This document shows positions 3,704-57,346 of a DNA stretch of 64,000 bases, piece by piece. A program made the position numbers and the translations under genes. The stretch lies in IMG/VR virus record IMGVR_UViG_3300025711_000006, one strand, 5' to 3'. The notes below the pieces were generated by a model. The model worked only from the letters and a program-made list of their open reading frames with translations. It did not search any database and was not told the DNA's origin. Each line of letters starts with the position of its first letter. Positions within the stretch are counted from its first letter, which is position 1. The stretch is from a virus. Its lineage: Duplodnaviria; Heunggongvirae; Uroviricota; Caudoviricetes.

Positions 3704-4231
3704 ATGAATGCAGTAATGACTAATATTGACCCTCGTAAAATCCAAGCCGCCATCGAGGCCGCGAAGTGGCTTCCGCATGGGCCAGAAAGGGAGAATAGCC
3801 GCGAAGCAGACAAGTTCGTTATCCGGGCCTACGTGGAAATGTTCGAAGAACTGGGGCGCCTCGCTGGCCTTCAGCTCCGTAGCCGTAACTCTGAAGTGGT
3901 GATGGCTATCATTGACTCCATTGAAGGCCGTATTGGCTCAAGAAACGCACTAGATACACTGTGCCACTACCTGGGCGAAGAGCTGAGCACACAAGTGCTT
4001 GCTGTAGTCCCTGAGTTCAAGTTGTCCGACTGCTCCGAAGAAGACCGGTTTGTTGTCCGCTACCCTTTGGAAGTACGTGACGCCATGTTCCAGGCGGCTG
4101 AGAAAGAGGGGGCTGAGAGCGGTATTGCCTGGTTAGTAGGAACGCTACTATACTGGATCAATGCGCAGCGTAAGAAATACGCGCTTTACAGAGCACTCTC
4201 TGTAATCAACAGCTCTATCGAAGGGGAGTAA
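3704..4231 (+). CDS. hypothetical protein (175 aa)
   Basis: AGGAAGG upstream; protein-like. Confidence 0.5.
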   Translation: MNAVMTNIDPRKIQAAIEAAKWLPHGPERENSREADKFVIRAYVEMFEELGRLAGLQLRSRNSEVVMAIIDSIEGRIGSRNALDTLCHYLGEELSTQVLAVVPEFKLSDCSEEDRFVVRYPLEVRDAMFQAAEKEGAESGIAWLVGTLLYWINAQRKKYALYRALSVINSSIEGE

Positions 4232-8422: not shown

Positions 8423-9394
8423 TCACCCGCGTGGGTGAGACTGACGAACTACTTGTTTTGTGTACTGCAAATCCAAGTGGGTGTAGAGCTGAGTAGTGGC
8501 GATATTCGCGTGACCCAGAATCTCTTGCACTGCCCGGATATCCTGGGAGGATTGTAACAGATGTGTGGCACAAGAGTGGCGCATTGTGTGGGGGTGGAGA
8601 TGCTTACCCAGGGTGCGTTCGCCCATAGCCTTCACACGCTTCTGCACAGCCCGCTGAGTGAGGGCCTTACCGTGGATGCCCAGGAACACATTAGACTCTG
8701 GAGCCTTCAGTGTGCCCCGGTACTCCAGCCAGCGGGCCAGGGCCTCTAGGGCCTTGCTGCCTACCGGCACCTCACGCTCTTTGTTGCCCTTGCCGATCAC
8801 ACGGACATAGCCTTCCTTCATGTTGAGCTTGTCCATGGTCAACTCGACCAGCTCAGTGACACGCAGAGCAGCGGAATAGAAGAGTTCCAAGATAGCCTGG
8901 TCCCGTACACCCAGGAAGCCATCCACCTCGGCATCGAGCATCTGGGAGCACTCTTCAACGGCCAGCACCTGGGGCAGTGTCTTAGCCTGCTTGGGGCCTT
9001 GGAAGCCATCGGCAGGGTTGACCTGTACGAAGCCCTCAGACTTGAGGTGGCGGTAGAGGGTGCGAACAGTCGTGAGCATACGGTTGATCGACTTCGGGTT
9101 GATACCTGCCTTGAGTTCACTTCTCACCAGATCACGCAAGTGAGCAACAGTAAGGTCAGACCAACTATTGACCTTCTTCTTCGAGCAGAGGGCATAGACC
9201 TTCTTCAGGTCTTGCTGTTTAGCCGACACAGTATTGTCGGGGGCATAACGCTGGAAACGGAGATAGTCCAAGTAAGTTTCCACCTGCGCCTTCATCTGTT
9301 CCATTGCAACCCCCTGAAAATTACTTCGAAGCGGAACGCTTCTGTATATGGGAATTATAGCACTACCACCAAAATATCCAACTACTTGTTGCAC
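8423..9394 (-). CDS. int: tyrosine site-specific integrase/recombinase (XerC/XerD-like)
   Basis: Catalytic R...HxxR...Y signature (ALRVTEL; HPHTMRHSCATHLL; LGHANIATTQLYTHL). True start probably the Met at 9304 (MEQMKAQVETYLDYLRF...). Confidence 0.85.
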   Translation of the reverse strand: MQQVVGYFGGSAIIPIYRSVPLRSNFQGVAMEQMKAQVETYLDYLRFQRYAPDNTVSAKQQDLKKVYALCSKKKVNSWSDLTVAHLRDLVRSELKAGINPKSINRMLTTVRTLYRHLKSEGFVQVNPADGFQGPKQAKTLPQVLAVEECSQMLDAEVDGFLGVRDQAILELFYSAALRVTELVELTMDKLNMKEGYVRVIGKGNKEREVPVGSKALEALARWLEYRGTLKAPESNVFLGIHGKALTQRAVQKRVKAMGERTLGKHLHPHTMRHSCATHLLQSSQDIRAVQEILGHANIATTQLYTHLDLQYTKQVVRQSHPRG

Positions 9395-24639: not shown

Positions 24640-25281
24640 AAATCTTTGCTCCCCTTCCTGGCGCCTCCCAGGACTGCCCCAGGTTGGCCCCCAGGGCCTG
24701 GGCTTGCGTAGGCATATAATGAAGGGAACCCGCTCCCAGGTAAACCAGGGCGGGCGCCTGGGCTGGCCAGGAAAATAAATCTAGCCGGGGCCTTGACCTG
24801 GGGCCTTGTGCTATATAATCTCTATAGCAGTAGCGGGAACGTAGCCAGGCGAAAGCGCCCAGGTGGATACCGGAGTTCAAGGGGGGAGTGTGGGCGCTAT
24901 TTAGATCGTTAGTTAGCTAAGCAACTGAATCGTTAGTTAGCTAATCAAGTATACTGGCGGGGTGTACAGGGGGTGCCGCCCGACTTGGAAGACTTTAGCC
25001 CATTGGCCCGGATCATTCCAGCGACCCCCCTGTAGCGCAAACAGTCTACCCCCTGTAGCGACAACTAGCTAGACCCCCTGTGAGGAAACCGGGTAACTAC
25101 CCTACCCCCTGTGATGGAGTTTTTGAGTACCCACTGTGAGGGAATTTTTGAGGAAGTGTGCGAGATTTTCATATTGGAGGGAGCTTACCCCCTTCCACTC
25201 TCTTGAATGAAAGCATATAGTGCCAGCATCTGAGTGGCAAGCTAGTGTCACAGATTCCATTGACGGGGAGTAAGAGCGGTA
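24640..25281. promoter_or_regulatory. complex control region between leftward early operons and rightward mvaT-like gene
   Basis: Degenerate 7th cassette copy (~24803-24830) reading TTGACC-N17-TAATCT on plus strand; 2 x ATCGTTAGTTAGCTAA direct repeats; 5 x CCCCCTGT(A/G)(G/A) boxes at ~25 bp spacing. Confidence 0.45.
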
Positions 25282-25665
25282 ATGAGTAAGATTGCACAGG
25301 TAAAGAACATCGAGGCACAGCTCAAAGCCCTTCAGGCACAGCTTGCAGCTCTCCAGGCAGACCCAGAGGTAAAGGCCGACCAAGAGTTCGAAGCAGAGCT
25401 TCGCCAGTTGCTCGCTAAGCACAGTCGCTCCCTGGTCGATGTGAATCGAGTGCTCGACCCCAACTATAAGCCTGCTAAAGCTCCCAAGGTGAATGGAGCT
25501 GGCCCAGGCGTAGCTACCAATCCGAAGCCTAAGCTCCGTACATGGCTCAACCCGCACACTCAGGAAAAGGTCGAGTCTACCCACGGCAATAACAAGGTTC
25601 TGAATGCTTGGCGGCAGCAGTGGGGTAAAGAAGCTGTAGCGAGCTGGAAGTTACCAGACGAGTGA
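25282..25665 (+). CDS. MvaT/MvaU-like H-NS family nucleoid-associated protein (xenogeneic silencer)
   Basis: 127 aa; N-terminal coiled coil (LKALQAQLAALQ) and C-terminal KLRTWLNPHTQEKVESTHGNNKVLNAWRQQWG matching the MvaT DNA-binding domain as I recall it. Confidence 0.75.
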   Translation: MSKIAQVKNIEAQLKALQAQLAALQADPEVKADQEFEAELRQLLAKHSRSLVDVNRVLDPNYKPAKAPKVNGAGPGVATNPKPKLRTWLNPHTQEKVESTHGNNKVLNAWRQQWGKEAVASWKLPDE

Positions 25666-26025: not shown

Positions 26026-26331
26026 TTACACCTCTTCAGGCGTGACTCTCAACTGGGTTTCCATCTGTCCTGGGTTGAACTCGCAGTCAAGCGTGTAGCC
26101 CGCCCGGACCAGCATCGTCATCAGCGTGTCAATGTTGAAGTCTTCTAGCTGGCCCTGCATGAGCCGGTTAACGTCTGCCGCGTCCACGTGCATCTCATTT
26201 GCCGCCAGTTGGTCTGACCACTCCCTTACCCGGATGTGGGTAATGAGCTGCATCCCGAGCTGCGACCTTACCTGCTTCAGGTTGTAGTCAACCGGATCAT
26301 TCGAGAACAGCTTGAATAGGTTCTGCCCCAT
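26026..26331 (-). CDS. XRE-like HTH DNA-binding protein (candidate repressor or antitoxin-type regulator)
   Basis: 101 aa; C-terminal WSDQLAANEMHVDAADVNRLMQGQ...TLMTMLVRAGYTL fits the HTH_XRE pattern; CCCCCTGTGG box at its RBS. Confidence 0.5.
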   Translation of the reverse strand: MGQNLFKLFSNDPVDYNLKQVRSQLGMQLITHIRVREWSDQLAANEMHVDAADVNRLMQGQLEDFNIDTLMTMLVRAGYTLDCEFNPGQMETQLRVTPEEV

Positions 26332-26384: not shown

Positions 26385-26498
26385 TCGCTGTCTTTCTTCG
26401 CTGCCCCTGGATCTTCGGTGGTGCTCTTAACCTGCCGACGATGTGAGCCCAGGCGCCTACGGGGGGCATCCTACCTCCCCACCCCCTGTGATGCAAAT

Positions 26499-26822: not shown

Positions 26823-27790
26823 AGCGTCACTACTTGTATATACGTCTACGCATTTACGCATTTGCGTATCTACTCATCTACTCACTTACGCATCTACTCA
26901 AATGCGCATCTACGCACCTACTCATGTACGCATTTACTCACGTGAGTAGATACGCACCTACGCATTCACTCATCTACGCATTTGCGTGCTTACGCACGTA
27001 CTCACTCACGTGCGTACCTGGGCACGCAATCACTTGGCCACTCGATTACCCAATCACTCACCCACGTGGGCACTCACGTGATTGCCTACGCAATCACGCA
27101 ATTGGTCACGCACCTAAGCACGTGCTTGCTTGGGTGCTTGCTTGGGTAAGTAGGTGCGTGGGTAGGTAATTGGTTAAGCACGTGAGTGAGTACGTGCTTG
27201 CGTAAGCACGTGGTTGAGTAAGTGGCCAAGCAATTGGGTAGGTGCTTACCTGCTTGAGTGAGTGCTTGATTGCGTGGGCACGCACCTACGTGCTTGGGTG
27301 AGTAAGCAATTGCGCAATTAATTGAGTGAGTGAGTTGACACGCACCCACGTGCTTGAGTAAGCTCTTACGCAATGACGTAATTGATTAAGCAATCACCCA
27401 CGCAATTGAGTACCTGAGTAGGTACGTGATTGAGCCAGTACGTGATTGCGTGCTTGAGTAGGTAGGTAGGTAATGAGGTGCGTAACCACCCAATCACTCA
27501 CCCACTTGAGCACGTAGGTACGCAATTGGTTGCGTGGGTGGGTAAGCAAGCACTTCCCTACGTGTGCAGGTACTCACGTAAGTGGATGGCCAAGTAAGTG
27601 GTGAACTACGCAAGTGAGCGCTTACGTGGGGAAGTGCGTGGTTACTCAATTGGACAAGTAAGCCCGTAGGTAGGTAAGCACCTACTTACTCAAGTGAATG
27701 CGTGGCCACTCAAGTGGATGGTTGCGTAAGCACTTAATGACGTACATACTTACGCACTTGGGCCATTACTGGCTTCTATGCGTAACCAGG
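26823..27790. repeat. array 1 of 8-bp periodic repeats (candidate partition centromere or iterons)
   Basis: Over 100 consecutive 8-mers: block A (26838-27010) NNTAC(G/T)CA(T/C); block B (27010-27790) the complementary TG(A/C)GTA(A/G)G; starts TTGTATATACGTCTACGCA. Confidence 0.8.
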
Positions 27791-27900
27791 GGAATACCCG
27801 ATTGCTCACCATGCTGAGCAGTTGCCCACACAGCAGCCGCGTAAGCGGTAAACAGGCACGGAAATGCTCATACACGATGAGCATATAAAGAGGCGGTACT

Positions 27901-28638
27901 ATGAAAATCATCGCAGTAGCAAACGGTAAGGGTGGCGTAGGCAAGACCACCACCACTGCACACGTTGGGGTTAACCTTTTCCAGCGCGGTTACTTCTCCG
28001 CGTTCTTGGACACTGACCCCCTGCTCTCCCTTACTGACTGGTGGGATCTGCGCGAATCGGAAGACCCACAACTGATTTCCTGTGAGCTGAGTAAGCTGGA
28101 TGCAGCTATTGCTCAGCTTGAAGCAGCGGGCGTTGAGTACCTGCTGATTGATACTCCCGGCTTTATGAGCGGTCAGGTCAATAATCTGCTCAAGCGAGCG
28201 GACCTGATTCTGATGATGTCGAAAGCAAGTCCCTTGGACCTGCGAGGCACCATCCGCTCCCTGGACTTCATTGAGGCACAGGGCGTTACACAGCCTATGG
28301 TGTTCGTACTGAATGAAGTACGGAAGGGGACCAAGATCGAGAATGAGTCGATCCTCTCCCTTTCTCAGTTCGGCAAGCTGGCACCCGTTGTTCACTATAA
28401 AGATGCGTTCGTGAGCAGCATGATTAACGGTCATGTGCTGGAAGAAATCGCCAAGAACGACAACCCAGGTATTGCCCAGGTTGACGCACTGACTGAGTAC
28501 GTCCTGGCCCAGCTTGGCGTTAAGGATCCGAAACCTGTTGTCCGCGATGAGCCCGCACCCCAGGCAGGCGCCGAGGTGATTGACCTTGCGTCCAAGCGGG
28601 GTAAGAAGGCAAAAACCTCGGCTAAGCGTAAGGCGTAA
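27901..28638 (+). CDS. parA: ParA/Soj-family partition ATPase (small type Ib ParA)
   Basis: Deviant Walker A KGGVGKTT at N-terminus; 245 aa without N-terminal HTH; GAGG RBS. Confidence 0.85.
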   Translation: MKIIAVANGKGGVGKTTTTAHVGVNLFQRGYFSAFLDTDPLLSLTDWWDLRESEDPQLISCELSKLDAAIAQLEAAGVEYLLIDTPGFMSGQVNNLLKRADLILMMSKASPLDLRGTIRSLDFIEAQGVTQPMVFVLNEVRKGTKIENESILSLSQFGKLAPVVHYKDAFVSSMINGHVLEEIAKNDNPGIAQVDALTEYVLAQLGVKDPKPVVRDEPAPQAGAEVIDLASKRGKKAKTSAKRKA

Positions 28639-28662
28639 CCGACCGACCACCCCCAGGTTGTA

Positions 28663-28905
28663 TATACATCTACGCAAATGCGTAAATGAGTACTTACGCA
28701 CGTGCGTACTTGAGTAGGTAGGTGGTCACTCACGTGGCCACTTGACCACGCACCTAAGTGCGTGGTTAACTGCGTGCTTGCGTAAGCAGTTACCTGTGTG
28801 GGTGAGTAGGTAATTAAGTGGTGGAGTGGGTACACACGCACCTACGCACTTGGCCAAGCACTTGGTTAAGCAAGTAGTTGACTAGCCACGCAAGCGGACA
28901 AGCAG
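28663..28905. repeat. array 2 of the same 8-bp repeat family between parA and the RHH gene
   Basis: Starts TTGTATATACATCTACGCAAATGCG; GTGAGTA/TACGCAC/TAAGCAC units. Confidence 0.7.
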
Positions 28906-28915
28906 GTACACTAAG

Positions 28916-29443
28916 ATGGTAGCGAAAGCACAAAGAGGCTCACTGGCGGCAGCGGGCCTAGTAAGACATAAACCCACAAGCCCATCCTCGGTAGCAGAAG
29001 CTCCGATGGACCCGGATGCAGATGCAGCGAAAGTTGCCCAGGTGTCTCAGCCAGAGCCCGAGGCGACGAAGGAAGCTGTTCAACCAGAACCGGAGCTTGC
29101 CACCAAGCCTGAAGTCAAACCGGATCCTCCGAAGCCGGAACCGCAACAAGTTGCCCAGGAACCAACTTTCGAGCCTGAGCCGGAACCAGAGTTAGTTCGT
29201 AAGGTCGAAATACAGCCCGCACAGCCGGATGCAGCTTTGAACAATCCTTCAGAACTTCAAGTAGTCCGCATTGCGGCCCCGGTACATGCCCGCAAAAAGA
29301 AGCCCGACCAGATTCAACTGAGTGTCAAGCTTAAAGGCTCAATTCTGGAGCGATTCGAAAAGGCGCGGTATGAGACTGACCTTACAGGCCAAGAGATTGG
29401 GGTAGAGGCCATTGAAATCTGGTTGGCACACAACGGGTTTTAG
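28916..29443 (+). CDS. ribbon-helix-helix centromere-binding protein (ParG-like), long Pro/Glu-rich N-terminal tail
   Basis: C-terminal QLSVKLKGSILERFEKARYETDLTGQEIGVEAIEIWL is a canonical RHH fold pattern; located directly after parA. Confidence 0.6.
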   Translation: MVAKAQRGSLAAAGLVRHKPTSPSSVAEAPMDPDADAAKVAQVSQPEPEATKEAVQPEPELATKPEVKPDPPKPEPQQVAQEPTFEPEPEPELVRKVEIQPAQPDAALNNPSELQVVRIAAPVHARKKKPDQIQLSVKLKGSILERFEKARYETDLTGQEIGVEAIEIWLAHNGF

Positions 29444-29541: not shown

Positions 29542-30036
29542 TCATTCTGCCACTGTTTCTGCCTCTTCCTTCGGCTTCGGTGCGCGTCCTTTCTGAGTCT
29601 TCACCTGCTTTATCTGGTAGTACTTCTTAAAACGGGGCTGGATTTCTTCAAACTTGCCCTTGGCGACAAGCGTGGGGTTAACCATGAACTCTCCGTGACC
29701 GATGCGCCTCAGTACGTCGAGCCCCAGGAGGGCGTTCAAGTAGTTGTTGAAAGTGTTCACCTGAATACCCATCGCTTCACTCATCCTTACCCGCATGCCT
29801 GGGGTGAGGTAGAGCATATTATCGTATTCCATTTTGTGACCGAGATGGTGAACCATGGTCGCATGGTGGGACTTCAACCCCAACTCGGTCATCGCCTCCG
29901 TGTACACCTTCACGAAGGCGGGCTCCTGGGCGAACCTGTATGTGGTTGTCGTCTCTTCGCTCAGAACCTCCCCCGTCTGCTTGTCGATGGTGGTTTTTTC
30001 TGTACGATGTTTGATCGTTTTCGCATTGTTGGCCAT
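29542..30036 (-). CDS. winged-helix DNA-binding protein, RepL-like candidate replication initiator
   Basis: 164 aa; AGGGAG RBS; HTH-like MSEAMGIQVNTFNNYLNALLGLDVLRRIG; family assignment is from memory only. Confidence 0.35.
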   Translation of the reverse strand: MANNAKTIKHRTEKTTIDKQTGEVLSEETTTTYRFAQEPAFVKVYTEAMTELGLKSHHATMVHHLGHKMEYDNMLYLTPGMRVRMSEAMGIQVNTFNNYLNALLGLDVLRRIGHGEFMVNPTLVAKGKFEEIQPRFKKYYQIKQVKTQKGRAPKPKEEAETVAE

Positions 30037-30039
30037 AGC

Positions 30040-30765
30040 TTCGTGCTCCCTCTGGTGGTGGTCAAAATCAGCTAAATCAAGGTACTAGAGGATGCATCTA
30101 GAAATGCTCCCAGGTGCTCAGATGGCGACCCCGATTTTCCTAATGAAATAGCTTACGCTACCTAACCTATATCGGAAAGGCACGTAACCTATTTTATTAG
30201 GGAAAATCGGAAATCGGTAATAAAACCGGGAGGTCGCAAAAGCTTCTTTTCTTTTAGGGCCAGTTTCGGAGGGTTGACACGGTGGGGGATGCGACACTGC
30301 CGCGCTTCGCTTGGCGGCTACGTCCCGTCGCATCGTCCACCCTGGCGCTTCGCTGGGGTGGCCAATCCGCCGTGCCGCAGCTCTCTACACCAGAGGCCAG
30401 CGCCGTGTCAAGAAAAAAGGATTTTACGATTGGGTATTGCGTCGGGTTTCGAACGGGGCTAATCTTTGGCCCAGAAACGACAAAGCCCCTCACGAAGAGG
30501 GGCCTTGAAGTGGCCAAGCGGTGTTACCAGCACCCTAGGCCCGGAGTCGAGGGGAATTCTCAGCTTTAGCAGGCACGGGAATCTCGACTCAGTAGACCCT
30601 ATTATATTAGGGATAGGTCCGTCCTGTCTACTGATTCGCACCCCTACGACACAACTTTTTGCAGGATAAATCCGTCAACCAAACGGGTATTGTCCGCTGT
30701 GTAAGGGGTAATAAACCTTGAAGAATTTCTTCAATGGAATCAGTAACTTAGCGCCTCTGGGCCAA
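30040..30765. other. ORF-poor structured non-coding region (candidate origin or ncRNA)
   Basis: ~115-nt imperfect hairpin 30124-30238 (GCGACCCCGATTTTCCTAAT ... ATTAGGGAAAATCGG ... GGGAGGTCGC); GC-rich 30270-30560 with only short overlapping ORFs in several frames. Confidence 0.4.
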
Positions 30766-39458: not shown

Positions 39459-42400
39459 TTACCAGATTCCCATACGCACTCTTAGTACCCCATCAACAAC
39501 AACTTGAATGCCGTCTTGGTTGAATACAGAGTAAGTATTTGCCCGCGTTGGGTGCCGAGTAATAACGTTCCCGACGTTGAAGTCCTGTGTCATAACAGGG
39601 CCACCCCAGTTGGTCTGGTATGCTGAGTAGATGCCAGAGCCGATGATGGCGTTAGTTACCGTTGCCTTATTGATAAAGGCGTCAGCAATAAACGTTTGAC
39701 CGTTCTGTACAACAAACGGCGAAGTCGCTGTTCCGTTTACCGAGTTGAGAATTGCAAACCGGTCAGCAACAAAGAGCACTTGGCTCTGCATGCCGCTCGG
39801 CGTGTTCTCAATCCCGATACCCATACCGGCACCGTAGTACTGACCGTTTGAGTTCACCGCCAACTTCACACTATAAAGAGCGTTAAGCTTTCCATTCGTA
39901 GAAGACTGGGTAGACGAAAGTGTCGAGATACTAGACGTATGGCTTCCAACCGTACTGGTTAGGCTTGAAATCGACGATGCCTGCGCGGTAATAGTTGAAC
40001 CTTGCTGCGTTACTGTTGTAGCTAACGAAGTCAGGGCGCGGGCACTAGGCCCTGCAACAAACGGTGAAGGTGTAGTACCATCCACAACTTGTTTTTCCAC
40101 CATGATGGAATCGACGGTCAAGTTTGCACTTGCTGCACCATTGATATTCGGGTAGATCAAGAGTGAAACTTTTGCTCTTGTGGGGACTGTGATAATCCCT
40201 GATTGCCGAGTACGTGTAGTGGTGAAGTTGACTGCAATTTGCCGAGATGTAGTCATGTCGTACAAGTTGAACAGCGCCTGACCGGCAGTAGTGCCTCGCA
40301 TGTACATGGAAACAATGTAGTTTCCAGGCTCTAACGTCATGTTCGTTGCTGCTGTGTTGGTGGCGGACGCAAGGTAGAGGGCTGCATAAGTGTTACTGCT
40401 GCCTGTCGCTACCAAGTTAATCCCGTAACCTGAATCCGAGCCCGCAACGGCCACCCCAGTCGCTGTCAAGCCGCTTGGAACCACAGGCGGCAAGGTCGTG
40501 GAAGTCAACCAGCTATACTCATCACTCAGCAGGTTAGTACCAGTGCCTCCAATCCCGTTGAGGGAGTTAGTCAAACTGGTGATGCTACTGGATGCACTTG
40601 TTAGAGCACCTTCCGTAGAAGTTACGCGGTTGGTTAGTGCAGTCAATGCGGTAGCTTGGGCCGATACGGCACTTGCACTTGGGCCTGCAACAAACGGGCT
40701 AGCCGTTGTTCCTGGGCCTGTCTGCTTCTCAACCATCACGGAGTCAACAGTTACTTCCTGGCCGCTCACGCCGCTCATGTTGTAGTAGAACAACACAGCC
40801 ATTGTGCTTGGAGCCCCAATGGTTACGGTGTGGCTGTAACGTGTCCGAGTGGAAGTTACAGTCTGTGCTACTGAATACGCACTTGTCGTAGTTGAATACA
40901 GACGCATACGCACAGATGCAGTGGTTGGGGTTGAAGCGTAGAACGACACAATGTATGTGCCCGCTTCAATTGGCATGTTGAACCCGGCTACGTTGTTGGT
41001 AGGGCAGAGCATCAAGTAGCAGCCCGTCGAGGTGCTAGTTGAAGTCATCTTGTATCCGAAGCCTGAAGCAGACCCAGACACAGCTACACCAACAGTAGTA
41101 GTTGCACTACCGTTCGTTGTCGGCAACGCTACGGAAGTTAGCCAGCTATACTCATCTCTGAGCAAGTTGTTACCCGAGCCAGAGATTCCGCCAACTTGGT
41201 TTTGCAACGTCGTTACCGAAGAGCCCTGGGAAGTGATATTCCCTTCAGCAGTGGTTACACGTGACGTTAGAGCAGCGAGAGCAGAGCTATCGGCCTTGTT
41301 CGCCACTGTGTTGGTCAAGCTGGTGATCGAGGTGCCTTGACTTGTAATTGTCCCTTCCGCCGATGTTACTCGGGTATCCAGGGCAGACAGAGCCGTAGCT
41401 TGTGCTGAGTCCTGGGCGGCACGTTTACGAATCACAGGTGACGATACAAACACATCACTAGCGTTGCCCGCTGATACACGGAAGCACATCGCAATGCGGA
41501 TAACACCGGCTGGAATAACACGTGTTCCAGTCAGCTTCGTCCAAGTCGCAGCGGTGCTAGTCAGGCGCACACCGTCACCGCTTGCAGCCACCCAATCATG
41601 AGTGATCGAAGTACCGGCAGCGTCGTACATCTGAATCCAGATACCTACTTGGCGAGAGGCGCTTGTGTAAGCGTACATCTCGAAGTCGTATGTATCACCA
41701 GCCGCAACAACCATGTTATGAGTAACACCGGTTTCTGGAGCCTTGACGTTTGGAGTTACGATGAACCCCATGTACAAGTTGCTTGCACCTGTTGCTAGAG
41801 CCCACTTCAGTACCCGAGCGCTTGGGGATCCATCTGGTACACCGGCATCTGATCGAGCAACAACGGTAACAGCAGATTGGTTAGTGCCGTGACCAGCCGA
41901 GAACGTCGGGTCATTGACCAAGTTGTCTGTAGCAACCGAGCCAACACTTGATTGCAGGCTGGTAATCGAAGTGCCCTGGCTAGTGATCGTACCTTCTGCA
42001 TTTGTAACGCGGTTGGTTAGAGAACTTAGCGCCGTAGACTGTGCTTCGACTTGGCGAGCACTATTACCAACACTGAATGTGCTTGGCTCTGTACCAGTAC
42101 CAATCTGTTCTTCCAGCATGAAGCCGTCGTAGATGTGTGAGCTAGTTCCCGCAGTAGCGTTCTGGAAGACAAGGATCTGTGCATCACCCGCCACTGCTGC
42201 TGGAGTTGTAATCACCGCACTTACGCGGGTCCAGGTTGTGGTCACAGGCACTGTAGCTACTGCTACCTCTACAAATGATCCTGCTGCGTTTTTATAACGA
42301 AGGCGCAACTGTGAAGTCCTTGCCGCATCACCTTGAACCCAGAACGACATAATGTAGTTCTTAGTCGGCTTCAATTTCAGTGGGCAATCAGTTGAGGATG

Positions 42401-45400
42401 CTGTGAGATAGAAGTAATTGGACTGCGATACCGTGCTCACAACACGAAGAGCGTAGTTACCATACGCAGAGGTATTCGCCTCAGTTGTAATGGTGACGTT
42501 AGCCTGCTTGTGTTGCGTAGGTGCTGTGGCACCAAACACGGAGAACTCAGCGGGCATCAAGTTAACAGCAGCATTGATCCCATTGAAGGAGTTAGTCAGG
42601 CTGGTAATGCTCTGGCCCTGGCTTGTTACTGTTGTACCTTGTTGGGTCACAGTCGAAGTCAGAGAACTTAGAGCGCTTGATGTTGCGGCGATATCCGAGG
42701 CCAAGCCTTGACCGTTATCGTGCCAACCGCTTGCTTTAGAACCCGCCTCAACTTGAGGTCTTGCGAACTCAATTGTTCCGTTTGTGGCAGTAGCAGTCGT
42801 ACCGTATACGCGGTAGTAGATGTTCGCTTGAGTAGCATCAGCCGGGGCTGTTGCAGTCAAGGTGATACGTGATCCATCCACAGTGATCGGGGTCAAACTG
42901 CTCGACGGTGTTGAAAGCAGTGTTCCGGCAGCGTTTAGGAACTGGAAGTACAGTCGCATGTTCATCAGGCCAGCTTCAGCCATTCTACGAACATAGATGG
43001 ATGAAGTGAAGGTCTGCCCACCAGCAACCTTAGCCCGTGTTGTCGAAGTAGTTAGCAGCGACATATAAGGGGTAGAGCTAGTGATTCCTGTAATCGCTAC
43101 GCGCTGTGCGCGTTCGCCTGAGTTCATCCAAGATGTAACTAGGCTAGGATTCAGTCCCGCTGTGCCTTCTAGCTGCCAGCCTTCCGGCCAGTTCGCATTA
43201 GTTGCACTTGTACGGGTGAACGTCGGGTTGTACAGCAAGTTCTCAGCGCCTGCATCACCCAAAGCGTTATCCAGTTGCGTGATGTTGCTTGACGCAGTGG
43301 TGATATTGCCTTCTGCTGCTGTTACGCGGTTAGTCAGGGCGGTAAGGGCGGAAGCATCAGCCTTATTGCTCACAGTGTTAGTCAGGGATGTGATCGAGTT
43401 ACCTTGAGAGGTGATCGTGTTACCCTGGTTAGTTACTGTGGTAGTTAGGGCTGTAGTTGCATCAGCGTTGGCTTGATCCGCTGCTGTACGGCGGCGAATC
43501 ATAATGTTGCACCACAGTGATCGACCTACGTTGTCGGTCGTCTCATGGCGGATAACAATCCGGGCAGATACCGAACCTGCTGGAGCAGTGATGCTACCAG
43601 TGTAAGTCTGGAACCCGTTAGTGCCAGCCACACACTGCGCGCCAGTGTAGTAACCAATGTTCGCTGAGTTCTTATCAAAGAACTGCATCTGGAGGCGTGC
43701 CCACTGACCAGCAGTGAAGTAGTTGTTCCAGATATCCGCAGAGGTGTCGAATACTTCCCCTGGTGCTGTGATGATGTTGCGAGTAGTACCGCAGAAGCTA
43801 TTAGCGTAGAACTGGATAGCCTTACCGTATGCAGAGTGGGCTGTAATGCCTACTACGGTTGGATCGTTAGTCCAAGGACCGATATCACCATCCTCGAAAG
43901 TACCCTTCAGTACCAGATTATCTGGCGACTGTGAGAGCGACGATTGAAGCGCTGTGAGTGAGTTCCCTTGGCTAGTGATCGTGTTGCCCTGGGTGGTCAC
44001 TGTTGAGGTCAGACCGCTAATAGCGCTGCCCTGGCTAGTGATATTCCCCTCAGCCGTAGAAATACGGTTGGTTAGGCTTGTGATCGAGCTGCTTTGAGAA
44101 GTGATCGTGCCTTCAGCGGCTGTAACTCTGTTGGTCAGTGCCTGGAGTGCGGTCCCTTGTGCAGCGGCTTGCGTGTAGCTGCTTCCGCCGTTGTACGTGG
44201 ATGGCTCTGAGGATGCACCAACTTGCTTTTCAACCATGAACCGGTCGAAGTAAACTTCAGTACCCGATACACCTGAGTTGTTCGGCATGAGTGCGAAAGC
44301 CATACGGTTTCCGCTGAATGTCGAAGCGTTGGTTAGATCCATTACCGCGCTGTATCGAACCCAACTTGTGGTTAGGGTGATTAGAGCGGATACGGCGTTC
44401 ACCGCAACATCAGAACTATTCAATGCACGGAGGTATGCACGAATCTGGCGACCAGCAACGTTCGTCTTGGCGTAGAACGAGATAATGTATTTAGCATTAT
44501 CATAAGACATATTCCAGCCATCAGCAGTAGCGTTTGAAACATGCAAGTAGCAGGCAAGGGAGTTAGTAGCCAAAGAGCTAGTAAACTTCAGTGCGTAGCC
44601 ATTTTGGCATGCAGCATCAACCACCGTCGTGAAAGTCAGTCCTGCGTTGATTGCACCAATAGGCGGAACATTGGCCGAGAACACAGAGTACTCGGAAGGC
44701 ATCAAGTTAGTACCGTTACCACCAATCGCATTAACGCTGTTGGTTAGGTTGGTAATGCTCTGGCCTTGCGAAGTTGTTGTGCCTTCAACAGCAGTTACCC
44801 GGCTAGTCAGTGCTGTTACAGCGGAGCTGTCTGCCTTGTTCGCTACAGTGTTGGTCAAGCTAGTTAGTGCCGAACCTTGCGAAGTGATTGTGTTACCTTG
44901 CTGTGTAACTGTTGCAGTTAGAGCGGTTGTTGCTGCTGCGTTAGCAGCCTCACCAGCACTCTGAATAGCAACGCGCAAGTTGCCCAGCCACATCTTGAAG
45001 CCAACCGGGGAAACTGCTTCAGTCGCAAGATACACGCGGAATCCAGCAGATCCAGCAGGGAGTGTGTATTGCGTCGAGAGGGCTTGCCAGCCACCTGTTG
45101 CAGCAACGTAGCCCAGTACACGAACGTTACCTACGCTGATTGTGTTGCCTGCCGAATCGACCGGGGTAATGCAGAGCTTACCGGCGTTCGTAACAGCGTT
45201 TTCACAGAACATATGGCATGAGATATTAATTACATCTCCAGCGTTCGCCCTGGTGAAGATTTGATAGTCGTTCCCGATCTTGTTTGTGGAGGTAAGTACA
45301 ACACCGCCCCAGTTATTATCGGTTGCCTTCTTCAATCTCCACAGCAGTCTTCCAGCAGGTGGGTTAGCCGGTACACCACTGTCTGTGGCGTTGGCATAGT

Positions 45401-48400
45401 CCATCTGGTACAGGCTACCGTTCTCGGTCTTGAGAATGCCCGCTGGATCCCAGTTCGGGTTAAGCAGAACATCATCTTGCGATGTGTTACCCAGACTTGT
45501 TTGCAAGTTGGTGATGCTTTGCCCTTGGGCAGTAGCTACACCCTCTGCATTCGATACCCGGCTCGTAAGTGCCGAAGTAGCGGAAGAGTTTGCATCAATC
45601 TGTACTTGCTCGGTTACGTCTTCTACTGTGTAGTAGTCAAGAACCGCTACACCGCCTTTGCTGTTGTAGTTCGCAATCACCATTGGCGAGAACCATGCGG
45701 TTCCTGCTTTCAGGCGTTTAGGGTCAGCCGCAGTACCTGCACCTGCACCACCGTTCTCAGTTGGTGATGTGTGTCCCTTAATGTGTACGCTTACTTCTAC
45801 CCATTGACCAGTAGGGTTAATGACGTTGTTCATCAGCAAGTAGTGCGACGAACTTACGGAGTTTGCTCCCGAGTTATTAATACGGGTCACACCGTCTTCT
45901 GCGAAGCAGTTCAAGCCGAGGTATGTGGATGGCGAGGCCAAACTTACTGAAACCTGCTTCACGCGGGCAGATAGTTTGTACACGCGGGTAGGGTCAAAGC
46001 GGATGCGGCGAGTTGATTCACCCCACCAGTGACCGTTACCAGCTCCACCGCTAAGCACCATTACACCGTCATTGGTGCTGCCTGCCTCAGTACCGTAAAC
46101 GGCTGTAGCAGTCGAAGTGCTTGCATTGGATACCCACTTATCGGTTGCCATAGCGCCGAAGACGCTTTGGTAAACCTTCGTTGGCGAATTGTCCAGCGAA
46201 CCGGTTAGCTTGTTATCAAGCTGGGTAATGCTTTCTCCTTGGGATGTAACATTACCTTCGGCGGTAGTTACTCGGCTGGTCAGGGCCTGGAGGGCAGAGC
46301 TATCGGCTTTGTTTGATACTGTGTTGGTCAGGCTAGTAATCGCTTGACCTTGTGAAGTGATATTACCTTCAGCCGAAGTAACGCGGTTAGTCAAAGACTG
46401 GATTGCATTGCCTTGTGCTGCAACTTGGCCTGCGCTATTACCAATCACGAATGTGGAAGGCGTTGTCCCTGTAGCAACTTGCTCTTCGACCATGATCTTA
46501 TCGACCCACACCGGAACGCCATAGGCGCCTGATCCAGACTTCGGATCAATGCAGAGAATCATCTTCTCGGCAGGGGAAGCAGTCATATCAATGATCGTGG
46601 TATAACGTGCCCAGGAGGTCGTTACGGTCATGTTGCTTGGGTAGTGGAAGACTACGGTGCCATCGGTCTGGATAGCGCGGAAACCAGCACGTAGTTGGTG
46701 TCCATCTGTTCCAGCTCGGACATACATCGAGACGATGTATTTCTTCTGCTTCATCTGCATGTTTGCAGAACCAATCACTGTGGAAGGTGAGAGGTAAACA
46801 GTGGCTGTCCCTGAGTCCTTCTGGAAGCGCAGAGCGTAGCCAGCGAATGTTCCTGCATCTGCCTCTACAACAGCAGTAATGCCACCACCTACAACCATGC
46901 TTGGGGCTGTGTTGCTGAATGTGCAGTACTCGGCAGGGAGCAAGTTGCTACCTGTTCCGCTAATCGCACCAACTGTTGTGCTCAAGTTCGTGATCGCAGT
47001 ACCTTGAGAGGTAATTGATCCGCCCTGGGCAGTAACGGTATTGGTCAGGCCACTGATTGCAGTTCCCTGCGATGTTAGTGTGCCTTCCGCTGTTGTTACA
47101 CGGTTGGTTAGATTGGTTAGCGACGTTCCCTGAGAAGTGATCGTCCCTTCGGCAGTAGTAACACGTGCAGTCAAAGCGCTTGTAGCACTTGCTGCGTTCG
47201 TAACCGAGATAGCGCTTGTACCAGCAACGAATGGTGAAGCAGTGTTTGTTGCACCGATACGCTTCTCAACCATCACGCTATCAATGATAACTTCCATTCC
47301 CGCAACGTTAGTGCGGTTCGGGTAGATGGTTACGGCAGTGCGAGCACTATCCGTTACAGTAACCGGTAGGGTTACACGTGTACGGGCAGTGGTGAAGTTG
47401 CCGAGGCTTGTGTAACGGTGTGTGCCGTCATACAGAGAAACGATAACCTGCCCAGCATTGTTACCCTTGATGTAGAACGAAACTAGGTAAGTTCCAGGCT
47501 CAATGCGGATGTTGTATCCGGCAGCGTTATTGGTAGGCGAGAGCATCAGGAACTGGCTGCTAGCCGTAGAGTTACCGATCTGGTAGCCAAACTTCGAATC
47601 AGCCTCAGCTACTGCAACAGCCGCCGTAGTCAGGGCCGTAGTTTTTGCAACAGCGGGCAGGGTGGTCGAGGTCAACCAGCTATAAGTATCCTCCAGCAGG
47701 TTAGTGCCAGACCCTGCGATACCGTCTACAGTCGCCTGGACGTTGGTGATCGACTGACCTTGCGAGGTCAGGGTATTGCCTTGCTGAGTTACTGTGCTGC
47801 TCAAATTGCTCAGGGCATTTGAGGTTCCAGTGATATTCGTCTCAGCGTTTGTGATGCGTGTTGTGAGCCCTGTGAGCTGCGATGTGTGCGAAGTAAGGGT
47901 GTTGCCCTGGTTCGTGATCGTCGTGGTGTTTGTGCTCACCTGGGCGGCTGTTGCACCGGCTTCTTGCAGGATGGTTCCTACGTCTTTCCAGTACGTCACG
48001 TTAGGTGGAGTCTTGTTCACCGGAACGGCAATCAGAGCCTGATACAGGCGTTGACCTTTGCGGACAATATCGCCAACTGCGTAGGTCTTGGTTGCGTCGT
48101 ACTCAGCAGCCTTAACAGCTGCATCGAGGTCGGTACGCAGGCCAGCAACTGTGGTATCAACTGCATTCGCACGGTTGGTCAAAGTAGTAACACTTTGGTT
48201 CAACGAGGTAACGGAGTTGTTTACGCTTGTTTGAAGAGCTGTTACATCACCTTTAACACCAGTGATCTGGCTATTTAGGTCGTTCTTCGTATTGGTGATC
48301 TGAGTATTGAGCGAGCCTACTTGATTGGTTAGGTCGTTCTTTACATTGGTGATCTGGGTATTGATCGCTGAAACATCAGACTTAACCTTGGTATCCAGGG

Positions 48401-53599: not shown

Positions 53600-56500
53600 T
53601 CAACCTTGCATTGATTTCCAGATATCACCACCTGGCTGTAGGTCTTTGCTGATAAGTTGCTTGTAGCGCTGGTCTACGAACTCACCTACCTGGCTTCCGA
53701 ACGAAGAGTAATCAGGCGAAGACGTTGAAGTCTGCTTGTTGCCCTGTCCGTCGATGGTGATGTAAACTTGTACACCTCCACCGCTGTTCTGTTGCAGGCC
53801 AGATACATCGACCGATGCACGAACACCCAGAGAGCCGTCTGAGGCCCGAGTCAGTGGCATAATTGCCTCTGGCCCAGCTTCACCCATGACGTTGTTGTTG
53901 CTCTTGTTGGTAGAGAACGAGGTGGGTTTGTTAACGATAGAGTTGGTGAAAGCACCACCCTTAGCGAAGTACTGAGTACCGCCGTCGAATGCAGCTCCCT
54001 TGGCAGCCATCATGCCCATATCCATTGCCGAAGCACTGTTCATGGAAGCACCAGATGGAGCGCTTGGAGCGGCCCACATAGTCAACACAGCAGCGAGAGC
54101 CCGTGAAGTAGCAATACGCACAGCCATTCGCGCCAAGTCATTCAAGATGGCCTTGGTGAGGTCTGCAAATGAAGCCTTACCGGTTGTAACGAAACTCACA
54201 AGCGAATCTTCCATGCTGTTGAAGGCATTGGTGAAGACTTGGTTAGTCATTGCGGCGTAGTTTTGGCCATCCTCAATGTACTGCTTGTAAGCACTGCTGA
54301 TACCGGCACCCCAGTCTGCCTGGGCCGCTTTCATATCTTCGTAGTTGCTGATGATCTGCTTCTTCATTGCAGTGTGGGCCGCAGCCGATGCACGAAGGTT
54401 GGCAATCACTTCCTCTTGGTCACGCCCTGGCTCACCCAGTTGCAGGGTAAGAGTACGCTGTTCGTCGTTGTAACGATCATCTTCCGCGTTGAGCTGGTCT
54501 TGCAGACCGGCTTGGCCACTGCTCATCGAGAGGGCAGCGCGTTGACGTTGACCAGCAACCTCCAGGTTCTTAACCATTTGGTTGAGGTTTTCAGCGTAGG
54601 CAGAGATAGCCTTATTCTGCTTAGCCAGTCGGGCTTCTTCATCCCCGGCAAGCTTCTTCAGCTTCTTCTCAGACTCTTCCTGGGCAACCACCATCTTCGA
54701 GCGAGCATCAGCAATTTGCCGATCAAGTGAGATGGTCTGGTTAGCAGAAATGTTCTTACTGCCTTTCAGCTTCTCCAGAGAATCAATTTGATTCTGGTAA
54801 GCCTGTGATACCTGCTTGGCTTCCTCTTGCAGAAGAGCCTTACGCTTCTCAACTCCCGCAGACAACCCGATAGTACCGGCGTTCTGCTGCTGAATGATTT
54901 CCTCATTCAGGGTTTGATACCGGGCCTTAACTTCGTTGACTTGGTTCTGGAACTCATTGGCGTCTGTGTTATCGAGAATGGCGGAACGTGGTTTACGTCC
55001 TTGCTTCTCTTTAAACTTACGCTCAGCTTCAGCTTTGAGTGTGTCGTAAGCACCGCCCTTATATCCGCCTTCCTTCGTCCAAGTGACGCCTTCCAGCATC
55101 TTTGGTAGGGTCTTCAGCGTCTTGGCGTTTTCTACGAGGTCATCAAACTGTTTGTTAAGCGCTTCGAGGTATGTGTTCTTCTTGGCGTCTTTACCGGCGT
55201 TCTCAAGATCCTTGAATAGTTTCTTCTCAGTCTCTACTACTTCTTGGTTCGCTTTGGTTCGCCTTGCAACTTCCTCGTCGTACTTATTCTTGAAGTCGCG
55301 GCGTCTGATAAGCGATTGAAGTTGCTCAGCAAGTGCCTCGTCTGAGTTTGCACCGAAGCCCATAAAGCTTGAAACGAAGCCTGTAACGCCACCCTCTTTG
55401 CGGGTCTTAAGGATCCGCTGAATCTGCACGATTTCATCGTTTAGATCGGGGAAGAGTTCGGCACGTACAGCACCATAAGCATTACTGATCGCCGTCTTTA
55501 CATCCATCCAATCTCTTTCGAGGTCGGAGAGAGATTCACGATAGCGCTCCAGTCGCTCCTGGGCGTTGTCTGCAAGACCTTGGCTCAATACGTCCATGGC
55601 CTCTTCGGTTTCGCCTTTCTTCTCCAGGGCGCGAATAGTTTCATACTGAGCAGCGGTAACAAGACCGTACTTAGCACTAAGCTTCTCGGCTTTCTCGGCA
55701 GCGGTATCACCCAGGGTTGCAAGCTCTTCGGCAACCTTGGCAATGTCTTGCCCGGAGGTTACAGCAATGGCTTGCGCAGCCTTACCGAAATTGGCTAGAC
55801 GGCCAGCGGAAACTTCACCAGTAGCAGCAAGAGCCCTGATGGCGTCCTGAGCTTCAGCGATAGAGTTACCGGCGACTGTGGCGCCTTCAGCAATGATTTC
55901 CAGGCCGTACTTGGAAGTGCCGACCAGCTCATTACCTTTGTAGATGGCAGCGTTGAGGGCCGACATACGGCGCTCTGTGTCATACCAGATAGCTGCGAGG
56001 CCGACGAATACAGCACCTACGGCCATACCCGGTGTAACTAGGGACATAAGGCCCTGGGCAACACCTTTAAGGGCAGGACCAACACCGCCGAACATATCCT
56101 TAATCTGACCACCCTGTTGCAGGAACACGGTCAGAGGGGCTTGGCCACCTTGGAGGGATACTGCAATGTCGGTGAACTGAGCGGGGAGGCCCATCTGTGC
56201 CATCTGAAGCTGCTTAGCAGTCAGGGCAGTGCGGCCTAGGGAGTCTTTGTAGCGGTCAGTCTTGGCGCGAAGTTCGTCAATCTTGCTCTGATACTTGGTG
56301 CGTTGCTCTTCGGTAACATCACCTTTGGCATACGCGGTATTCAGGGAATTTTCGAGCTTGGCTAGACGTTGACGCTCTTTTGTAACTGGGTCGATGGCGG
56401 CTAGGAGGTTATCCAGAGCCTTCGCTTCGTCTTCAGCAGAAGCCTTGCGGCGTTTCGAGTTACTTACGGCAGCGTCGGCTGAGTCATTATCAGCCTTAAT

Positions 56501-57346
56501 GCCAGCAAGTGTACTATTCTTTTTCTCTTTGTCAAGAGCCAAGAGGCGATTATGAGCATCATTTCGGTATTTAACCCGAGATTTTTCAGTTGCCTCTTCC
56601 TGCTTGAGGTATTCCTTGTTCTGCTTGTCGCCTTCCTTCAGCCAGTTGTTAAGGCGAGACTTCTCAGCGGCCTCTTCCTCTTCAGCTAGTTTCTGGCGAG
56701 CCTTTGAAGCACTGGCCAGGGCTGAATGCCGGTCGTTAATCTCTTTGGCTTCGGCTTGCTTCTGCTTTTCAGCACTTGCATACCAGTTTTGAAGGCGTTG
56801 ATCCTCGGCGGCTGCTTCTTCTGCGTTTCGCTTCTGGCGAGCCTGGGAGCCCTTGGCTAGTGAGTCGAGGTATTCCGACTGGACAGTCTTCTGCGTTTCG
56901 GCGCTACTGTACCAAGCATCGAGGCGCTGTCTTTCTGCCGCCGCCTCTTTCTTGTTGACCTGCTCAACTACGTTCCCCCGCTCAATGATCTTTTGGCGCT
57001 GGGTGTCAATGATCTGGTTGTACTTCGCGGCAGTCTCATCGGAGTAAGTACCAGCAGCACGGGCTTCATTGAGAAGCTGTTGTTGCTTGGCCAACTTGTT
57101 GAGGCTGCTGGTCTGTCTATCAATCTGCTCAAGCAGCTTGTTGCCATCCGGTGCAGGCTTCGGCGTAGCGGGCTTAGGTTGAGCAGGGGCTTTAGGTGGG
57201 GGAGTGGGTTTAACGGGCGGAGCTGGCTTATTCAGGGGGCTATTTTCTAGCCCCTTGGAAGCCTGGATCAACTCATTAACTTTGTCTGTGGCTGCTTCTA
57301 CTTGCGTGGAGTCAACCTTAATTTGCAAGTTAGCAATAAACGTCAT
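53600..57346 (-). CDS. tail tape measure protein (1248 aa)
   Basis: Coiled-coil rich; three Trp-containing tandem repeats (AAERQRLDAWYSSAE / EDQRLQNWYASAE / EKSRLNNWLKEG); Pro-rich N-terminal segment; position after G/T. Confidence 0.9.
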   Translation of the reverse strand: MTFIANLQIKVDSTQVEAATDKVNELIQASKGLENSPLNKPAPPVKPTPPPKAPAQPKPATPKPAPDGNKLLEQIDRQTSSLNKLAKQQQLLNEARAAGTYSDETAAKYNQIIDTQRQKIIERGNVVEQVNKKEAAAERQRLDAWYSSAETQKTVQSEYLDSLAKGSQARQKRNAEEAAAEDQRLQNWYASAEKQKQAEAKEINDRHSALASASKARQKLAEEEEAAEKSRLNNWLKEGDKQNKEYLKQEEATEKSRVKYRNDAHNRLLALDKEKKNSTLAGIKADNDSADAAVSNSKRRKASAEDEAKALDNLLAAIDPVTKERQRLAKLENSLNTAYAKGDVTEEQRTKYQSKIDELRAKTDRYKDSLGRTALTAKQLQMAQMGLPAQFTDIAVSLQGGQAPLTVFLQQGGQIKDMFGGVGPALKGVAQGLMSLVTPGMAVGAVFVGLAAIWYDTERRMSALNAAIYKGNELVGTSKYGLEIIAEGATVAGNSIAEAQDAIRALAATGEVSAGRLANFGKAAQAIAVTSGQDIAKVAEELATLGDTAAEKAEKLSAKYGLVTAAQYETIRALEKKGETEEAMDVLSQGLADNAQERLERYRESLSDLERDWMDVKTAISNAYGAVRAELFPDLNDEIVQIQRILKTRKEGGVTGFVSSFMGFGANSDEALAEQLQSLIRRRDFKNKYDEEVARRTKANQEVVETEKKLFKDLENAGKDAKKNTYLEALNKQFDDLVENAKTLKTLPKMLEGVTWTKEGGYKGGAYDTLKAEAERKFKEKQGRKPRSAILDNTDANEFQNQVNEVKARYQTLNEEIIQQQNAGTIGLSAGVEKRKALLQEEAKQVSQAYQNQIDSLEKLKGSKNISANQTISLDRQIADARSKMVVAQEESEKKLKKLAGDEEARLAKQNKAISAYAENLNQMVKNLEVAGQRQRAALSMSSGQAGLQDQLNAEDDRYNDEQRTLTLQLGEPGRDQEEVIANLRASAAAHTAMKKQIISNYEDMKAAQADWGAGISSAYKQYIEDGQNYAAMTNQVFTNAFNSMEDSLVSFVTTGKASFADLTKAILNDLARMAVRIATSRALAAVLTMWAAPSAPSGASMNSASAMDMGMMAAKGAAFDGGTQYFAKGGAFTNSIVNKPTSFSTNKSNNNVMGEAGPEAIMPLTRASDGSLGVRASVDVSGLQQNSGGGVQVYITIDGQGNKQTSTSSPDYSSFGSQVGEFVDQRYKQLISKDLQPGGDIWKSMQG

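Follow-up and report, generated by a model that had tools for sequence, protein, structure and literature searches.

Two long arrays on a 4-bp pyrimidine-purine lattice adjoin parA in a candidate Pseudomonas phage-plasmid

Introduction

Centromeres bound by ribbon-helix-helix (RHH) proteins are known as arrays of ~10-20 short repeats, and we know of no RHH centromere-binding protein with the CTP-dependent spreading of ParB proteins of the helix-turn-helix (HTH) type. The temperate phages P1 and N15 are kept as low-copy plasmids by a ParA-type system (type Ia ParB/SopB), in which large HTH ParB proteins spread from small parS/sopC sites. Repeat clusters reportedly lie on both sides of the partition operon in pB171 (parC1/parC2) and in pAD1 (8-bp repeats flanking repBC). 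Here we analyse a stretch of 64,000 nucleotides from a tailed phage (Caudoviricetes; IMG/VR record IMGVR_UViG_3300025711_000006), hereafter the window, in which a parA gene lies between two arrays of short repeats and the second array is followed by a gene for an RHH protein.

In plasmid TP228, the parH centromere and the OF operator are made up of 20 degenerate copies of the tetramer ACTC, set 4 bp apart as direct and inverted boxes; one ParG dimer binds each box, the array is coated cooperatively, and the N-terminal tails of ParG modulate binding and recruit the ATPase ParF (PMC3130281). For the RHH protein ParB of pSM19035, work with parS sites of 4 and 7 repeats has established that repeat contiguity is needed for ParA activation (PMC9499535). 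By analogy with these two systems we infer RHH binding, its stoichiometry, spreading and a partition function for the locus described here. Its arrays probably represent the centromere and operator of a type Ib (ParF/ParG-like) partition system, carried by a ~100-kb siphovirus of Pseudomonas type that is probably kept as a plasmid prophage.

Results

The arrays follow a 4-bp pyrimidine-purine rule

The locus comprises the following parts.

26823-27770, array A, 237 in-phase tetramers (118 octamers), in a frame without a slip
26845-27004, plus strand, consensus zone of array A, 20 true 8-bp units yyTACKCA with TACGCA/TACTCA boxes and 2-nt linkers
27005-27770, degenerate body of array A, ~190 tetramers obeying (V-B-Y-R)n, with TG, CA or TA at each fourth step and boxes in mixed orientations
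27901-28638, plus strand, parA, 245 aa, a small Walker-type partition ATPase of type Ib, ParF-like
28651-28918, array B, 67 tetramers (~33 octamers) between parA and the RHH gene, opening with GTTGTATATACATCTACGCA at 28657
28916-29443, plus strand, RHH gene, 175 aa, the presumed centromere-binding protein

An original prediction, made from the letters of this stretch, had described more than 100 consecutive octamers, ~1.2 kb of repeats in all and a second array of ~30 units between parA and the RHH gene. Each of these descriptions holds, with a combined length of 1216 bp for the two arrays. They had also been said to bracket both genes, which is right for parA but not for the RHH gene, as array B precedes it.

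In-phase pyrimidine-purine (YR) steps occupy 224 of the 237 tetramers of array A and 62 of the 67 of array B, against a background frequency of 0.248 (binomial P ~5e-117 and ~7e-32, respectively). Outside the arrays, no 100-bp stretch of the 64-kb window reaches 19 in-phase YR steps out of 25. The steps of array A are divided almost evenly between TG (78), CA (72) and TA (71), with only three CG; CG is nonetheless the commonest dinucleotide between the steps.

Self-identity of the whole array is 0.44 at a lag of 4 and 0.47 at a lag of 8 (0.43-0.49 at lags 4, 8, 12 and so on), compared with 0.25 in parA and in the window overall. In the body, from ~27005, identity at lag 4 (0.48-0.53) equals or exceeds that at lag 8 (0.44-0.48). 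The real period of the repeat is therefore 4 bp, not 8, and the genuine 8-bp unit is restricted to the first 160 bp, the consensus zone, to which the predicted "strictly 8-bp" register is confined. At a lag of 3, self-identity is just 0.18 and no 3-bp signal exists; together with the array indels described below, among them differences of 4, 8, 20 and 56 bp, which would shift any reading frame, this supports the original view that the open reading frames (ORFs) called inside the array are artefacts.

Past ~27005 both octamer halves obey one rule, which excludes T from position 1 and A from position 2 and places a pyrimidine at position 3 and a purine at position 4. Counted from the YR step, the rule reads (YRVB)n and is identical to its own reverse complement, as expected if the binder of the duplex has two-fold symmetry. 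The tetramers come in 40 different forms, of which the commonest accounts for 9%, and with units this diverse Tandem Repeats Finder detects no more than short sub-arrays. This diversity and the Tandem Repeats Finder result speak against a simple tetranucleotide microsatellite or contingency locus. Heptads of the pSM19035 omega/parS type do not fit either, since self-identity at lag 7 is 0.16 as against 0.44-0.47 at lags 4 and 8. The array has a G+C content of 0.50 throughout, with no AT-rich region, and G exceeds C beyond ~27100.

Both arrays share a start motif, followed in array A by a zone of consensus boxes

The consensus zone directly follows this element:

26833-26844, plus strand, start motif of array A, CTTGTATATACG, near-palindrome GTATATAC

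As predicted, both arrays begin alike. The motif (C/G)TTGTATATAC(G/A)TCTACGCA occurs in the 64-kb window only at their openings (26833 and 28657), and it heads both arrays in every related locus (see below). The expectation that the first ~20 units would be of TAC(G/T)CA type is borne out by the 20 octamers of the consensus zone, whose information content is 1.1-1.7 bits at 6 of 8 positions. Two boxes 8 bp apart (TACKCAnnTACKCA) match 20 times in the window, every time within the two arrays, with 0.86 matches expected. We propose the consensus zone as a high-affinity nucleation site.

We built a position weight matrix (PWM) from the 20 consensus units and applied it to the body. There, the mean in-phase score is +2.4 bits, whereas background gives -7 and off-phase positions give -10 to -13. 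Scores above 4 bits are reached at 59 of 189 in-phase positions, as against 1.1% of the background. The canonical TACTCA unit itself has two YR steps 4 bp apart (TA...CA), and this is the feature that the degenerate body retains. The best-scoring boxes are mostly forward up to ~27100 and mostly reverse after it, with mixing. The predicted flip to TG(A/C)GTA(A/G)G for ~95 units thus captures a trend, whilst the exact boxes of the ~770-bp body are of both orientations (10 reverse and 8 forward). With a 4-bp lattice and mixed boxes, both the flip and the strict 8-bp period are approximations.

Register and base class are under selection in related loci

Nine related loci were compared (L003-L011), including a relative on a 101,508-bp contig from an assembly named Pseudomonas sp. 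P8_250; two of them (L009 and L010) are short contigs that start inside or just before array A. Where enough upstream DNA is present, the gene order is MvaT-like gene, array A, parA, array B, RHH gene, RepL or HTH_36 gene and SPFH gene. Array A ranges from 850 to 1370 bp among these loci and array B from 160 to 270 bp. Within each locus every segment of array A lies in a single phase, even where the sequence can no longer be aligned, and the lattice persists in the P8_250 relative too, in weaker form (69% over 700 bp).

For the window and its three nearest relatives we counted indels and substitutions. The 16 internal indels all have lengths divisible by 4 bp, and for 10 of them the length is not divisible by 8, which identifies the 4-bp register as the conserved quantity. 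In the pair that is 92% identical, transitions outnumber transversions by 31 to 4 at the Y and R positions, compared with 17 to 20 at the other two (Fisher P 1.5e-4), and the same bias recurs in more distant pairs (P 5e-16 and 3e-19). The array (91% identity) evolves at a pace similar to its flanking genes (parA 95%, RHH gene 85%). Such class-preserving substitutions are not explained by slippage and argue for purifying selection on the YR lattice; what selection targets is the pyrimidine-purine class and the register, not the sequence.

These comparisons also bear on whether the arrays are a neutral, decaying tetra- or octanucleotide microsatellite or an artefact of assembly. Slippage naturally yields indels in multiples of the unit, and the perfect-repeat zones of the window and L006 differ by 56 bp, which attests to length instability. 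However, slippage cannot produce a transition-only pattern at Y/R positions, and phase is retained where the sequence is unalignable. As for an artefact, which the original prediction had named as grounds for its own rejection, the arrays are found in every related locus across independent ENA, Logan, JGI and NCBI assemblies, and the 40 different tetramers make an assembly collapse unlikely. We give this explanation next to no chance.

The boxes directly after the start motif vary by lineage (TACGCA/TACTCA, TACCCA or TAATGG) and are always alike in arrays A and B of one genome. In the TACCCA lineage (L005) the beta-strand of the RHH protein is changed at alternate positions, and in the TAATGG lineage there is a smaller change in the same strand. 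This joint change suggests that the RHH protein and the boxes form a co-evolving protein-site pair.

The lattice might instead be the track of another DNA-binding protein, such as the MvaT-like protein (gene at 25282-25665), the HTH_37 protein (26026-26331), an Arc-like RHH protein (3704-4231) or a host nucleoid protein. The MvaT-like gene is syntenic with the arrays in all relatives with sufficient upstream DNA, the HTH_37 gene is so in L005, L006 and L007, and the window does hold a second RHH protein. MvaT-type proteins, however, favour AT-rich DNA, whereas the array is 50% G+C, and the same type of box is also found beside parA-parG operons that lack these other genes. The position of array B between parA and the RHH gene speaks for the product of the latter, as do the leading boxes that match between the arrays of each genome and the box change in L005 that accompanies that of the beta-strand. 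We therefore regard a track for any of these other proteins as quite unlikely.

More distant relatives, with ParA proteins 46% and 39% identical to that of the window, encode RHH versions of 88 aa (L012, 2315-2581) and 99 aa (L013, 2092-2391). These have short tails and share the motif GQxIxxEALDLWLxKNxF with the 175-aa protein of the window. The 46% relative has an array of ordinary size (~180 bp plus ~60 bp), and none was detected in the 39% relative, which places the expansion to kilobase size within this phage lineage. Among these few cases, longer tails go with longer arrays.

parA is of type Ib and its partner is modelled as an RHH protein

The ParA protein has its KGGVGKTT motif at residues 10-17, matches CbiA/ParA in Pfam and the ParA-like PHROG 164, and finds its best solved relatives in ParF of TP228 (4dzz; expectation value (E) 6.8e-13, residues 1-199) and in the ParA structure 5u1g. 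It is a small Walker-type ParA (~200-250 aa) without an N-terminal HTH domain, as is typical of type Ib, and the original assignment of parA to this type stands. The short boxes in an 8-bp register upstream of the ATPase gene, represented by the 20 octamers at 26845-27004, likewise agree with type Ib.

The RHH protein consists of a basic N-terminal peptide in which R7 is invariant, an ~85-aa Pro/Glu-rich disordered linker, an APVHAR(K/R) arm and a C-terminal RHH domain. Across ten homologues the basic peptide and the arm are conserved and the last 50 residues highly so, with a variable linker. An AlphaFold model of the last 62 residues (pLDDT 86) has strand-helix-helix topology, so we assign to the downstream protein the RHH fold that a type Ib binding protein requires. 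The gene had been called RHH and ParG-like: the model agrees with the first description, whilst no profile match above threshold places the protein in the ParG sequence family (PF09274). The family is rare, with 10 clusters in a search of 5.8 billion proteins and only 12 clusters when the RHH domain was used as a single sequence in phmmer against 1.84 billion representatives; searches of GTDB genomes and IMG/VR with back-translated RHH patterns brought up no relatives.

The locus resembles plasmid centromeres and exceeds them in size

Like TP228, a plasmid of Salmonella and E. coli with type Ib partition, the locus combines a small ParF-like Walker ATPase with a binding protein whose RHH domain is C-terminal and preceded by a flexible tail, and it has short boxes in a strict 8-bp register, in both orientations and with degeneracy tolerated, upstream of the ATPase gene. 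The original prediction held both the size and the 8-bp register to be unusual. The size is, with ~146 predicted dimer positions over 1.2 kb as against 20 boxes over ~160 bp in TP228; the register is not, since ParG of TP228 uses a 4-bp box and a 4-bp spacer. Other differences concern the spacers, which are AT-rich in TP228 and here obey the box rule to give a 4-bp lattice, and the RHH protein, which has no detectable similarity to the ParG sequence. The tail of TP228 ParG is ~30 aa long, whereas that of the window protein is Pro/Glu-rich and ~130 aa. Here, moreover, a second array separates the two genes and the replicon is that of a phage.

In BLAST searches of the region against plasmids only the 160-bp consensus zone was matched, which is the sole DNA similarity found for the region; a BLAST search against phages gave no match. 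In Aeromonas plasmids (p71506-2), 28 copies of ATGTACTC lie directly upstream of an annotated parA-parG operon, and the Psychrobacter plasmid pP32BP2 (parA-parG) has 16 copies of TCTACTCA and 11 of ATATACTC. These unannotated arrays repeat the TACTCA box every 8 bp as the window does; unlike it, they consist of 11-28 perfect copies (~90-224 bp), have no degenerate body and accompany a 70-aa ParG. Two TACGCA boxes 8 bp apart, CTTACGCACGTACGCA, are also present in the unannotated record of the N4-like Acinetobacter phage vB_IME_Ab2712 (OK149216.1; L014, ~2880-2900), where they precede by ~40 bp the gene for a ParA with 34% identity to that of the window.

The delta-omega-parS system of pSM19035 differs in its 7-bp heptads and short contiguous arrays. 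Two short-repeat arrays with one partition operon recall what is said of pB171 and pAD1; in those plasmids the arrays reportedly measure ~100-200 bp, and here the second array sits between the genes for the ATPase and the binding protein. P1 and N15 offer a further contrast, as the large complex of the present locus would be encoded in the DNA itself.

Array A contains a conserved island and a promoter-like element that breaks the rule

Three further elements lie within array A or between it and parA.

27334-27364, plus strand, promoter-like element GTTGACA-N18-TAAGCT, embedded in array A and breaking the periodic rule
27573-27618, 46-bp island inside array A, containing CTCACGYAAGTGGATGGCCAAGTAAGTGGTGAACYACGCAAGTGAG, AAGTGGATGG and the near-palindrome GTGGTGAACYAC
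27803-27884, plus strand, structured leader upstream of the parA ribosome-binding site (RBS), with three hairpin-forming inverted repeats

The promoter-like element was detected through its conservation: GTTGACA-N18-TAAGCT/TAATCT/TAAGAT is kept in all nine related loci and lies 528-780 bp ahead of the parA start codon. A consensus promoter scanner called no promoter here, because the -10 sequence of the window copy matches at just 3 of 6 positions. The element is likely a promoter that a coat of RHH protein would cover. The island is nearly invariant across relatives whose flanking array has become unalignable; a conserved 26-nt pattern taken from it had no match among genome, viral or metagenome contigs. 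In the leader, the inverted repeats lie at 27803-27820, 27836-27849 and 27864-27884, and the 7-bp stem nearest the RBS has three pairs preserved through two-sided changes in the nine-locus alignment.

These elements raise the question of whether the arrays are chiefly a regulatory operator or titration sink that sets the expression of parA, the RHH gene or lysogeny genes, or that insulates the par genes from the divergent HTH and MvaT-like genes. The conserved promoter-like element and the structured leader fit such a role, and in TP228 the OF operator is built from the boxes of the centromere, with both functions coexisting on the same kind of box (PMC3130281). This coexistence means that an operator role complements a centromere and does not replace it. 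A repressor operator, in addition, has no need for more than 100 sites, and the adjacent ParF-like ATPase needs a centromere, for which we saw no further candidate among the repeats of the window. As the chief function of the arrays, we consider regulation unlikely.

A role at the level of RNA is a further alternative, in which array B and the part of array A downstream of the internal promoter would be transcribed as intercistronic and leader RNA, the 4-nt periodicity serving stability or translation. It draws on the position of the promoter-like element upstream of parA, on the compensatory pairs in the leader hairpin and on the lack of a terminator between parA and the RHH gene on the plus strand. 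Nevertheless, the lattice is also present upstream of the promoter, and its reverse-complement symmetry and mixed box orientation point to duplex DNA. Rfam gave only two sub-threshold chance matches to microRNAs and a tRNA search found none. An RNA-level function is thus very unlikely.

The replicon is a candidate phage-plasmid

Structural genes of the window encode a tape measure protein, a major head protein and a head protease, and these co-occur with ParA, the RepL-like gene and the Xer-like recombinase. By major capsid protein, the closest cultured phages are the Pseudomonas phages vB_PpS_SYP and phiPMW (37% identity, 103-107 kb), and homologues of the RHH protein and ParA are located on stand-alone contigs of 100-107 kb. 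Further products of the window are Arc-like, MvaT-like, HTH_37 and SPFH proteins. The recombinase (8423-9394) is an XerC/D-like tyrosine recombinase and could act in plasmid multimer resolution or as an integrase. The MvaT-like gene encodes a DNA-binding domain of MvaT type (an H-NS-like xenogeneic silencer), which points to a host of Pseudomonas type, and the Arc-like RHH protein measures 175 aa. On the minus strand, a single 3853-aa ORF occupies 39459-51020 near the tape measure gene (53600-57346) and presumably encodes a giant tail or host-recognition protein.

The RepL-family gene (29542-30036, minus strand) lies downstream of the RHH gene; in L003 (6615-7202) and L004 (6612-7199) its position is taken by an unrelated 195-aa HTH_36 gene, which suggests that the replication-initiator module is exchanged beside a par module that remains in place. 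The ~730 bp (30037-30765) that separate the RepL-like gene from the next contain no convincing ORF and hold CCTATT(T/A)TATTAGGGA twice, 410 bp apart; Rfam and tRNA searches of this segment found none. Upstream of the MvaT-like gene, ACCCCCTGT(A/G)(G/A) is present in five copies at 25026-25140 with a spacing of 23-31 bp, and these are candidate iterons or operator sites. A sixth copy lies at 26477-26493, directly before the terminator that precedes array A, and similar copies (GGGTGTAGYG or CCCCCTGTAG) adjoin the arrays in L011 and L012.

The original prediction had left it open whether the arrays act as a centromere, as replication iterons or as both. Repeats near par genes are sometimes origins, and a RepL-family gene, replaced by an HTH_36 gene in some relatives, could supply an initiator for iterons in the array. 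The unit, however, is 4 or 8 bp long as opposed to ~17-22 bp for iterons, the array has no AT-rich region for unwinding, and parA and the RHH gene separate it from the RepL-like gene. The initiator is swapped between relatives with the arrays unchanged, and the repeat cluster at 25026-25140 makes a better fit. We consider replication iterons extremely unlikely; the centromere half of the proposal, extended to an operator, is retained by comparison with known systems (ParF-like ParA, RHH fold and type of box).

Discussion

Taken together, this analysis suggests a centromere and operator that would work as follows. RHH dimers would nucleate on the 20 consensus TACKCA octamers after the TTGTATATAC motif that heads each array. 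From there they would extend by cooperative polymerisation into the degenerate body at a density of one dimer per 8 bp, every monomer occupying a single TG, CA or TA step. Array A would offer ~116 dimer positions and array B ~30, or ~146 in total. Binding of one monomer per YR step would account for the period of 4 bp, for a rule symmetric under reverse complement, for the tolerance of 4-bp shifts and for the near-exclusion of CG; the last might reflect direct reading of a T:A pair at each step or indirect reading of the deformability of the step. The contiguity requirement known from pSM19035 would, if it applied here, explain selection against indels that break the register.

The resulting coat would display a dense brush of long, Pro/Glu-rich acidic tails, each ending in the conserved basic peptide. 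We propose that this peptide stimulates the ParF-like ATPase on the nucleoid, thereby driving segregation. The same coat would lie over the embedded TTGACA promoter and in this way autoregulate parA. A long, hard-wired track of this kind may be the way in which RHH proteins reach a large partition complex without ParB spreading.

Several observations weigh against a centromere of this description. The RHH protein has no sequence match in Pfam, PHROG or the PDB, and a PDB profile search yields no RHH protein; the ParG family PF09274 is matched by only one of the ten homologues (E 0.12), and hhalign against an Aeromonas ParG gives a probability of 0.3%. Neither 8-bp sub-register of the body is preferred (32 versus 27 sites above 4 bits), which leaves the model of one dimer per 8 bp to analogy. 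The RHH centromeres known so far have a fifth to a tenth of this length, and it is possible that the ~770 bp of weak sites have a different or additional role; indeed, given the conserved island and promoter within the array, binding of one protein is not the sole function of the region. A plasmid lifestyle of the ~100-kb Pseudomonas-type siphovirus, which we find plausible, is deduced from gene content only.

The locus is best filed with the ParF/ParG-parH kind, as a hugely expanded member, on a probable phage-plasmid, in which register and base class are conserved and the presumed centromere is split into two arrays around parA. What is known already is the 8-bp register of TACTCA-type boxes, which is the parH/ParG architecture of TP228; what is unusual is the size, the conservation at the level of base class, the conserved promoter-like element within array A and the presence of a further array in the gap from parA to the RHH gene. 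It is a more tentative and rather doubtful proposal that the locus represents a new type of centromere, in which a structural code (a TG, CA or TA step every 4 bp, in unbroken phase over ~1 kb) would template an RHH filament of more than 100 dimers as a hard-wired substitute for ParB spreading, with size and acidic tails tuned to a 100-kb phage-plasmid.

The locus speaks to the question of how small RHH complexes could be scaled to large replicons without spreading of the ParB type, since this family presents a natural expansion to ~146 predicted binding positions. It may thereby serve as a natural test bed for indirect readout and step recognition by RHH proteins, for the need for contiguity and for the relation between the size of the partition complex and that of its cargo. 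It also adds a candidate lineage of Pseudomonas phage-plasmids, for which the relative in Pseudomonas sp. P8_250 may allow experiments.

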